The position numbers were made by a program, and so were the translations under genes. A DNA stretch of 64,000 nucleotides from Faecousia sp. (GTDB lineage Bacteria; Bacillota; Clostridia; Oscillospirales; Oscillospiraceae): NCBI GenBank assembly GCA_045651005.1, contig JAZRRS010000006.1, positions 84,366 to 148,365 on the forward strand. The letters are read 5' to 3'. This document shows positions 50,587 through 61,326 of the stretch, piece by piece (positions within the stretch are counted from its first letter, which is position 1; every line of letters begins with the position of its first letter). Below the pieces are notes generated by a model that had not been told where the DNA came from, did no database searches, and saw only the letters and a list, made by a program, of their open reading frames with translations.

Positions 50587-50665
50587 GACAAAGGGACGGT
50601 TCTGCTGTCCCCCTATCACTTTGAGCGGAGCAGACTAGAGGACAGGAGAACCGTCCCCTGTCTTC
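50587..50665. repeat. Inverted doublet of REP-like hairpins at the left border of the RHS island
   Basis: GGGACGGTTCT (50593-50603) and AGAACCGTCCC (50647-50657), each enclosed by a GACA/TGTC stem. Confidence 0.75.
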
Positions 50666-51248
50666 TTCCTTACCCTTCTCCACATACTTTATCAGCCGAT
50701 CTGCAAGATCGTAACAATATGTGGTTGTAATACCTGTGACAGAATCCTTTACCGTTGCCAAATTACCACTGTTATCGTAGGTATAGGAATAGGTATCTCC
50801 GTCTTCATAAGACTGGCCTGTCACACGTCCCTTATCATCGTAAGTATAGTGTACACTATCTCCATTGCCATAGTCAAGCGCGGAAAGATAATTATTTCGA
50901 TCATTTGTGTAGTTATAGGTTGCCAAGGTACGGCTGCCGATGCTGACTCCGGTACGAAGACCAAATTTACCATAGTCAAAGCTGTAGGTAGTGGTAGGCG
51001 TAGCAATGGCAGTCAGCCGGTCATCTGCATAGGTATAGGTTGCGCTGAGCCCCAGTCCTGTATCTGTTTCACAGGCGGCAGTTGCCATACGGTACATGCT
51101 GTCATAGGTATACTCCGTACGGGTGGCTTCTGTATCCTCCGGGTACTGCACCCAATCCAGCACATTGGTTTGGGCATTGTAGCCGTAGGTGGTAGTCTTT
51201 CCCAAGGCATCGGTAGTGGATACCAGCCGGTTACCGTCAGAGGAATAG
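50666..51248 (-). pseudogene. Truncated orphan RHS/YD-repeat fragment (no C-terminal toxin)
   Basis: [12 protein letters not shown]...YVEKG is closely similar to the other two RHS copies; both ends run into hairpin repeats; no RBS. Confidence 0.85.
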
Positions 51249-51424
51249 CACAAAGGGGGCGGAAAACCGCCCCCTTTTGCCCTTTGTTGGATAGCACACA
51301 GAACCGTCCCCTGTGCTAGAACTTTGTTGGATAGCACACAGAACCGTCCCCTGTGCTAGAACCGTCCCCTGTGCTAACAGAACCGTCCCCTGTGCTAAGC
51401 ACATAGAACCGTCCCCTGTGCTAA
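51246..51424. repeat. Junction hairpin plus five copies of AGAACCGTCCCCTGTGCTA
   Basis: AAAGGGGGCGG-AAAA-CCGCCCCCTTT hairpin; 19-mers starting at 51300, 51340, 51358, 51379 and 51405. Confidence 0.92.
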
Positions 51425-51456
51425 GCATCGTACTCTATAGCATTGACATCATAATT

Positions 51457-60900: not shown

Positions 60901-61179
60901 AATGTCCTCCCAGCCGTTTTCTGTCTCAAAATGGACGGCTTCCGGATAGACCACCGCCATATGCAGTCCCGAACTAAGCAGGAACTCCTTGGAGAACTCC
61001 GTTCTCCTCTCCACGATCTCGTCTACCACCTGCACTGACTGAGGTGTGAGCGTTTTCAAAGCTTCCGCATCCGCTACCGCTTCCCGGAACGCCTCTGCAA
61101 ACACCCCCATTGGCAGCATATTGATCAACAAAACGATGATCAATATCATACTGCACACTCTCAAAAATCGCTTTTTCAT
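55000..61179 (-). CDS. WapA-like secreted RHS/YD-repeat polymorphic toxin with DNRLRE and carbohydrate-binding-like domains and a C-terminal HNH/EndoVII (LHH-like) nuclease
   Basis: Sec signal peptide; TRTYLKY...[12 protein letters not shown]; YD repeats; [51 protein letters not shown]...H...H; AAGGAGG RBS. Confidence 0.92.
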   Translation of the reverse strand: [2059 protein letters not shown]

Positions 61180-61289
61180 TTGATGTCCTCCTTATTTTCA
61201 ATATATTCGATTATTCCGTAGAATCCTACAAAACAATCTTTTTATCTACTATAACAGGAGGAAATCAAATAAATTGTCGATTTTAGAAA

Positions 61290-61326
61290 AATAGAAAAAG
61301 GGGACGAAAAAAATCCCCTTTGTCCC
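61290..61326. repeat. Diverged copy of the RHS junction hairpin at the right border of the island
   Basis: AATAGAAAAAGGGGACGAAAAAAATCCCCTTTGTCCC versus AATAGAACAAAGGGGACGGAAAACCGCCCCCTTGCCC at 54327. Confidence 0.65.

Follow-up and report, generated by a model that had tools for sequence, protein, structure and literature searches.

How does an array of toxin and immunity cassettes come to have borders that agree to the single base, and what part do the hairpins at these borders play? The question is raised by a locus in a 64,000-nt stretch of DNA from Faecousia sp. (assembly GCA_045651005.1, contig JAZRRS010000006.1, positions 84,366 to 148,365), here called the window, whose own numbering is used throughout. 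As annotated from its open reading frames (ORFs) and domain matches, this is a Rhs polymorphic-toxin locus in which a main gene and the immunity gene that goes with it are accompanied by a complete orphan cassette, a relic and a truncated orphan. Its cassettes are bordered by a short hairpin that we assign to the repetitive extragenic palindromic (REP) sequences of a REP-associated tyrosine transposase (RAYT), an enzyme of the HUH/Y1 type. Two long-standing questions meet here, that of the origin and exchange of orphan toxin/immunity cassettes and that of the role of RAYTs and REPs. Rhs orphans and REP/RAYT pairs are each well known, and we found no published link between them: our literature search returned no description of the hairpin motif or of REP/RAYT elements connected with Rhs, orphans or immunity genes, and Quentin 2018 does not mention Rhs. 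Our reading, to which we give a probability of about 60%, is that the array has been shaped by homologous recombination on one propagated joint and that the feet of the hairpins are at the same time real points of breaking and joining, probably through a RAYT acting in trans.

The genome of the window is a metagenome-assembled genome (MAG) of 2.17 Mb in 115 contigs, 77% complete, with the array inside a 192-kb contig. In what follows, G stands for genomes (G000 being the window's own), C for contigs and L for fetched loci or contigs.

One junction shared by the orphan cassettes

An earlier note, made from the sequence of this stretch, had described a full-length rhs gene with immunity gene, an orphan core and toxin with immunity gene and a truncated third core, an inventory that is confirmed by the ORFs and by Pfam matches to RHS_repeat and DUF2019. 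RHS_repeat is recognized in the main gene (55000..61179, minus strand, 2059 aa), in orphan 1 and in orphan 2 with E-values of 7.7e-42, 9.1e-22 and 5.6e-16, respectively. Orphan 1 (51796..54226, minus strand, from ORF 54231..51796) consists of rhs core from the equivalent of Tyr1279 onwards followed by a different C-terminal toxin, and orphan 2 (50680..51248, minus strand, its end being approximate) is a core fragment of 190 codons without toxin tip and without immunity gene. The locus thus has the architecture of known orphans, with a 5'-truncated core, a divergent tip, a downstream immunity gene and a stretch of core in common with the main gene.

The note had further stated that all orphan starts, at 51248, 54226 and 54331, join a hairpin block at the same base, equivalent to 57346 in the main gene. 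This identity of the joints holds: the plus strand has exactly four occurrences of the 13-mer GTCAGAGGAATAG, which end at these four positions (chance alone would give 0.07), Tyr1279 of the 2059-aa ORF 61179..55000 is encoded at 57345-57343, and in both orphans homology to the main gene begins exactly at the junction base. The placement of the joint at the REP hairpin itself does not hold, as it lies 6 nt past a second, terminator-like hairpin, after a T-rich tail. At 54331 the junction base is likewise as described, but what follows it is only a relic (54297..54331, minus strand), namely a 26-nt stub of core and 9 unrelated bases, the whole of 35 nt being cut at the 5' foot of the next REP hairpin.

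The junction blocks, about 77 nt each, fold into two hairpins (z about -4.5) and consist, in this order, of a 27-nt REP hairpin, a spacer of 15-17 nt, a G+C-rich terminator-like hairpin and a T-rich tail. Copy 1 (54332..54399, minus strand; DNA fold z -4.2, with a terminator-like prediction) has its REP hairpin at 54399-54373 and its second hairpin at 54357-54338; copy 2 (54227..54296, minus strand; fold z -4.6) has its REP hairpin at 54296-54270, again followed by a second hairpin; copy 3 lies behind five tandem REP copies (51249..51423 together, minus strand). The three blocks align base for base, and the 90.9% identity of orphan 2 with orphan 1 over 640 nt extends through the block. On the other side of the joint, main gene, orphan 1 and orphan 2 are alike at 92-100% over 180 nt, with 100% and 98% identity between main gene and orphan 1 in the first two 60-nt windows; further on, the main gene falls to 45-75% while the two orphans still share 80-98%. 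Sliding identity and alignment place the corresponding patch of the main gene, which begins at Tyr1279, at 57166..57346 on the minus strand. Since the junctions are alike on both sides, at 92-100% in the block as well as in the 180 nt of core, we take the three to be paralogous copies of one ancestral joint. The notion of independent events at one base was rejected for this reason, and the simpler alternative that the earlier note had mentioned, repeated duplication of a single ancestral junction, is borne out.

Repeats of about 260 nt that are 91-100% alike might also lead an assembler to mis-join or collapse an array, the more so in a fragmented and incomplete MAG, and many copies of the hairpin are found at contig ends in other MAGs. 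We nevertheless regard an assembly artefact as highly improbable: the array lies inside its contig, between tyrS and the EamA gene, the copies of the repeat carry diagnostic substitutions, and the same architecture recurs in many independent assemblies.

As to the origin of the joint, the pentamer CTATT begins both the orphan joint and codon 1279, and it also follows a degenerate second hairpin upstream of the main gene (61290..61326, minus strand, behind the tyrS terminator). The ancestral joint probably arose as a single event beside a hairpin, at this microhomology, and can be read as a deletion from the hairpin-adjacent CTATT to that of codon 1279 in a duplicated locus. Homologous recombination between the blocks of about 77 nt and the 180-nt core patches would then have spread it. 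Block and patch together are direct repeats by which ordinary recombination can duplicate, delete, excise and re-insert cassettes, and exactly the architecture observed would result from one crossover within the patch if the chromosome recombined with a circle that had been closed at the joint of block and patch. The patch is also the likely exchange substrate through which orphan tips could swap into the main gene, a process known from enterobacterial orphans; for those of Salmonella, an experimental demonstration of such a swap is reported (PMC3967940).

A similar arrangement is found in a relative from the same genus (G052), where a single base, near residue 1797, is the point at which three of four orphans meet a conserved upstream block that they have in common, composed of a decayed hairpin, ACCAAC and a terminator, and the fourth orphan reaches further 5'. 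Among metagenome contigs, the junction pattern of the window had 0 matches and a 20-nt core pattern a single one (L135), which is unrelated.

The hairpin and its cognate enzyme

The REP hairpin of the window has 27 nt, with the stem TAGCACA/TGTGCTA and the conserved loop GGGGACGGTTC. The motif AGAACCGTCCC occurs 9 times in the window, always within 50593-54391 (0.58 expected). In the 2.17-Mb assembly the 10-mer of the loop has 17 copies against about 4 expected, nine of them in the 3.8-kb array stretch, three on contig C5 in an array of small ORFs and the others beside housekeeping genes. On C5 (18813-20920, L001), the three hairpins of the rhs type stand between small ORFs of 131, 157 and 170 aa, the last with a weak AAA/zeta-toxin-like match; the same 17-nt flank follows two of the hairpins, and the stretch, which is at a contig end, is possibly a further string of cassettes.

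A search of public genomes with the 21-nt core of the hairpin returned at least 117 stretches. Among the matches listed, the records are MAGs titled Oscillospiraceae, Acutalibacteraceae, Faecousia, Ruminococcus, Lachnospiraceae and Blautia, as well as Eggerthellaceae and Atopobiaceae, and those from Clostridia and other Bacillota include rumen and gut MAGs. The identical 21-nt hairpin in MAGs labelled as Eggerthellaceae and Atopobiaceae, families of the Coriobacteriia in the Actinomycetota (L016, L041, L060, L062, L089, L101, L103) suggests transfer across phyla or binning errors. Copies frequently form inverted doublets, frequently with tandem partial copies. Stems of at least 5 bp are formed in 289 of 390 instances, and the arms that enclose the one loop come in 26 different sequences; the pairing of the stems was also put to a permutation control, a weak one since most copies have identical stems. 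The foot tag GTAG/CGTC of known REPs is not present, the feet being variable (TAG, GAA, CCG, GTG and others) and the loop conserved. Copy numbers range from 1 to 27 per genome in a patchy distribution, which fits RAYT group 1, or TnpA-Y1 subclass 2.1, a group that reaches into the Clostridia and has low-copy repeats (PMC5581495, PMC6006769).

The earlier note had connected the hairpins with an HUH (Y1/RAYT) system and had stated that no such enzyme is encoded in the window. Both points stand. In at least eight other genomes (L130, L131, L129, G179, G247, G037, G226, G294), inverted copies of the hairpin stand on either side of a Y1 gene of about 249 aa. The 249-aa protein matches NCBIfam REP_Tyr_transpos (NF047646) with 76.7 bits, just below the cut-off of 80 bits, and Pfam Y1_Tnp with 55 bits; its HUH motif (NHIH) and its tyrosine motif (YIHQNP) are invariant, and the profile matches E. 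coli TnpA-REP, PDB 4ER8, at 7e-11. In a sample of 301 genomes of the order, with RAYTs called at E<=1e-20, the hairpin is present in 29 genomes, the RAYT in 12 and both in 6 (Fisher p 3e-4, a value that kinship among the genomes inflates), and where the RAYT is at least 56% identical to the query, the hairpin flanks it in five of five genomes. On this sequence evidence, the window hairpin is classed as the REP of a RAYT (HUH/Y1) family of about 249 aa. As for a vector, plasmids and phages yielded only distant relatives of the RAYT protein, with less than 37% identity, and none was identified.

The window genome holds a second REP/RAYT pair. A 152-aa RAYT-like gene on contig C92 (13212-13670; L006:1444-1902; NF047646 76.7 bits) has a GTAG-tagged REP on its flanks, and downstream lie tandem doublets that resemble bacterial interspersed mosaic elements (BIMEs). 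The gene was rejected as that of the cognate enzyme because its flanking REP is of this different type. The GTAG-type REP has 28 copies over many contigs of the genome and 0 in the window. With this second family as an internal control, the rhs locus is seen to attract one of the two REP families but not the other. Elsewhere the hairpin is followed directly by a GTAG-type REP resembling that of the window genome (L015, L109, L112), and the two REP families can thus form one composite block.

Hairpins at rhs cassette borders in other genomes

Enrichment of the hairpin at the borders of rhs cassettes, which the earlier note had proposed to look for, is strong and extends across species. Among the matches listed, rhs-like sequence is present in 21 of 117 hairpin loci, where about 1-2% would be expected, and in the sample of the order at least 24 of 114 hairpins, from 28 genomes, lie within 3 kb of an rhs match against the same expectation (p 8e-18 vs 2%, again inflated by kinship). 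In single genomes the proportion may be far higher, with 4/4 hairpins near rhs in G263, 5/6 in G037 and 3/3 in G247. The hairpin lies on the same strand as the rhs gene 98 times and on the other 25 times (about 80%).

The borders of core fragments coincide with hairpins at many different places. Internal starts of such fragments lie at most 75 nt downstream of a hairpin in 12 of 19 cases, at 12 different positions of the core (residues 653 to 1822), and fragments that end at the 5' foot of a hairpin comprise L015, L019, L097 and orphan 2 of the window, whose end at the hairpin 50662-50641 confirms the note's description of the third core copy. In five further loci (L151, L153, L155-L157) nearly all cassette borders carry a hairpin or a cluster of hairpins, the last of which closes the array ahead of housekeeping genes. 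The RAYT gene is itself a unit inside the rhs array in L154, L155 and L076. An all-against-all megablast of the fetched loci retrieved three blocks shared across species that end at hairpins, a small number.

Strain differences end at hairpin feet

Breakpoints in relatives could be followed with immunity gene 2 (51457..51792, minus strand, 111 aa; DUF2019, Pfam 3.3e-7), which stands behind the toxin tip of orphan 1. It has 197 homologues in other samples, the best of them 99% identical. No such comparison was possible from immunity gene 1, because its homologues are at most 68% identical.

Two loci from different samples, L166 and L167, are 98.2% identical to positions 51804-51421 of the window and to nothing else in the rhs locus. 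On their left, the shared sequence is met 13 nt before the stop codon of orphan 1 by a hairpin of the same family, which has another stem and carries five or six partial copies, and the toxin is therefore absent. On the right, homology ends at GATGCT, exactly where the first TAGCACA hairpin of the window starts; from there on the two loci have a hairpin of their own and a promoter-like site, after which the cognate RAYT gene begins. The same immunity cassette is thus cut exactly at hairpin feet, with a RAYT gene adjoining. A third sample (L170, with an immunity protein 90% identical to immunity 2) shows the order immunity gene, hairpin, RAYT, and in L169 and L168 toxin tip and immunity gene are common with the window at 88-90%, the sequences diverging 2 nt before a hairpin.

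Such findings could be taken to indicate a dedicated cassette system, in which the RAYT would excise hairpin-bounded units as single-stranded circles and insert them at hairpins in the manner of an integron. Immunity gene 2 does occur as a stand-alone unit with hairpins on both sides and a RAYT beside it in L166 and L167 and behind a toxin tip in the window, the five arrays with hairpins at nearly every border are as such a system would have them, and direct orientation, as found at the ends of IS200/IS605 elements, predominates among the hairpins. However, we saw neither circle junctions nor a conserved target sequence nor a defined length of the cassettes; right-hand borders are separated from the hairpin by 0-50 nt or more; and homologues of the cassettes occur both with hairpins and, in L160, L168 and L171-L181, without any. 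RAYTs have moreover never been shown to move cargo (PMC3333891, PMC5581495), and the identical junctions of the window need no such system. We consider a system of this kind quite improbable.

Note that in four of these metagenome contigs, L171-L174, a gene for a large serine recombinase of 538 aa lies between toxin/immunity units, one with Tox-REase-7 and a HEAT_2 protein, the other with a 268-aa protein and a homologue of immunity 2. None of the window-type hairpins are present in these four contigs.

Polarity of the hairpins and a proposed mechanism for the array

In the window and in many genomes, tandem hairpin copies have a common 5' start and variable 3' ends, which fall in the loop, the 3' arm or the spacer. 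The five REP copies within 51249..51423 all begin at the same 5' foot (TAGCACA); the first is full-length with one base changed, the second to fourth are shortened at differing points, and the fifth is full-length. The sequences that abut the 5' foot in the window are unrelated to each other, being the end of immunity gene 1, the relic, the flank of immunity gene 2 and the core of orphan 2. A fixed 5' end with variable 3' ends fits a Y1 enzyme that is held on the 5' phosphate as a 5'-phosphotyrosine. E. coli TnpA-REP forms a 5'-phosphate-bound intermediate, cuts at C|T within a region of more than 400 nt around the REP to which it is bound, and produces tandem copies by strand transfer in vitro (PMC3333891). 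By analogy, a RAYT supplied in trans would nick at the 5' foot, stay on the 5' phosphate and join it to any available 3' end, and the feet of the hairpins would be the places where cassettes are cut, joined, truncated and lost. The catalysis of these steps by a RAYT is what we infer from the sequences; template switching induced by the hairpin could produce the same outcome. In the array as it stands, hairpin and terminator together would insulate the silent orphans from transcription, and orphan 1 has no evident ribosome-binding site.

The alternative that has most to be weighed treats the hairpins as passive passengers. REPs would accumulate in dispensable intergenic DNA with fast turnover, to be kept behind immunity genes as terminators or mRNA stabilizers, and the array would have been built and shuffled by RecA-type recombination and microhomology deletions alone. 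The paralogy of the junctions, with their long flanking homology, is what this predicts, and several observations speak for it or against a part of the hairpins in breaking and joining. The shared joint lies about 50 nt 3' of the REP hairpin, behind the second hairpin. Arrays of relatives have shared breakpoints without an intact copy of the window hairpin. In the window genome hairpins also stand beside housekeeping genes, in G210 a run of ordinary genes has one in each of its gaps, and G175, with 27 copies, gave no rhs match; from these last two cases it follows that the element also behaves as a plain REP. The 80% of copies on the strand of the gene are in line with a role at the level of RNA. 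A cognate RAYT was not found by tblastn in the assembly of the window genome, which is 77% complete, and is absent from 23 of the 29 hairpin-bearing genomes of the order sample at E<=1e-20. To these points may be added that replication slippage could also give rise to tandem partial copies, and that the strain contigs are short metagenome pieces, L166 with an N gap. The passive reading does not account, however, for core fragments whose start or end, at a dozen positions, lies no more than a few bases from a hairpin, for strain differences that end exactly at hairpin feet, for RAYT genes located in the arrays themselves, or for the avoidance of the rhs locus by the other REP family of the genome. 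We rate it as possible but somewhat unlikely, and prefer the reading in which homologous recombination on one joint is combined with breaking and joining at hairpin feet.

The run of ordinary genes in G210 (L152, C1:33.8-42.2 kb) encodes proteins with an S1 domain and an RDD domain, a GDSL lipase, a beta-helix protein, an LRR-dockerin protein, a ParA-like protein and a methyltransferase, and it shows that the hairpin can spread locally without toxin context.

What the preferred reading offers is a compact case that can be tested, with a hairpin defined by its conserved 11-nt loop, a defined enzyme family beside the same immunity cassette, strain differences ending at hairpin feet and a predicted polarity in which a fixed 5' foot is joined to 3' ends that vary. 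Should the joining be the work of this enzyme, gut bacteria would possess a dedicated means of editing their repertoires of weapons and defences; should it not be, the hairpins would keep their value in metagenomes as markers of where cassettes are bordered and where recombination ends. A much wider proposition would be that RAYT/REP pairs of this type are neither mere parasites nor domesticated structural elements, but an HUH-catalysed system for single-strand cutting and joining by which toxin/immunity cassettes of Rhs and similar arrays are created, truncated, moved and stored. This would amount to a functional counterpart of the integron for genes of bacterial warfare and to the long-sought function of RAYTs, and we look upon it as unlikely.

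Comparison with known systems

The closest likeness is to the orphan rhs-CT/rhsI modules of E. coli, Salmonella and Serratia (PMC3150448, PMC3967940), in which a main gene is accompanied by silent cassettes of core, a different tip and immunity gene. There too, a common stretch of core permits homologous exchange with the main gene. The window array differs in its host, which belongs to a spore-former lineage of Gram-positive type, in cassette borders that are REP hairpins of a RAYT family, and in orphan starts that all go back to one joint. It is a well-documented case of REP/RAYT and Rhs together in a lineage of Clostridia type.

With REP/BIME-RAYT systems (TnpA-REP, REPtron; PMC3333891, PMC5581495, PMC6006769, PMC3733652) the hairpin has in common that it is a short extragenic palindrome which also occurs as inverted doublets and in tandem variants, that inverted copies flank a single Y1/HUH gene, and that its copy number is low and its occurrence patchy. 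Unlike these, it has no GTAG/CGTC tag, it conserves the loop while the stems vary, its copies are concentrated in rhs toxin arrays, and its RAYT is often a unit of the array. The 'peel and paste' elements of the IS200/IS605 family also have a Y1 HUH enzyme, and hairpins in direct orientation could define left and right ends. In contrast to these elements, however, we found neither identical multi-copy elements nor TnpB nor a conserved target tetranucleotide, and the units between hairpins are unrelated cassettes, unlike each other in cargo and with no conserved flank.

A last comparison is that with integrons (IntI/attC) and with rAID-1, the recombinase-associated immunity arrays of Bacteroidales, which are likewise promoterless cassette arrays with a folded site of single-strand type at the end of each cassette. 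The attC sites are imperfect inverted repeats of 57-141 nt with R and L boxes, whereas the window hairpins have about 27 nt and a conserved loop, and an attI/Pc platform is lacking. Tyrosine recombinase (PF00589) has no match on the contig of the array, its matches being on other contigs only. With no integrase on the contig and no attC-type site, membership among the integrons was rejected, and the integron-like mechanism that the earlier note had suggested is not supported.

Layout of the locus

Every gene of the rhs locus is on the minus strand, and the array sits between tyrS and the EamA gene. In the order of this strand, tyrS and its terminator are followed by a hairpin-like element, the rhs gene, immunity gene 1, block 1, the relic, block 2, orphan 1, immunity gene 2, the five REP copies, block 3, orphan 2, the inverted doublet and EamA. 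An Rfam search of 50.4-54.5 kb gave no credible family, and exact look-ups of both immunity proteins gave no record. The C-terminal tip of the main Rhs protein, as a polymorphic toxin, has a weak match to nucleases of the LHH/HNH type (LHH 2.6e-4, below the cut-off).

Immunity gene 1 (54397..54996, minus strand, 199 aa) is an ORF without Pfam family, and its TAG stop codon (54397-54399) is formed by the first three bases of the REP hairpin of block 1. A homologue of immunity 2 in L163 likewise runs into a hairpin, with its stop codon inside it. At the far end of the array, the inverted doublet (50586..50663, minus strand; fold z -4.5) resembles a REPIN, a doublet of inverted REPs, and has the same loop motif on other stems; its hairpin at 50662-50641 and its second copy at 50611-50593 truncate orphan 2 and close the array before the EamA transporter gene (49609..50529, Pfam EamA).

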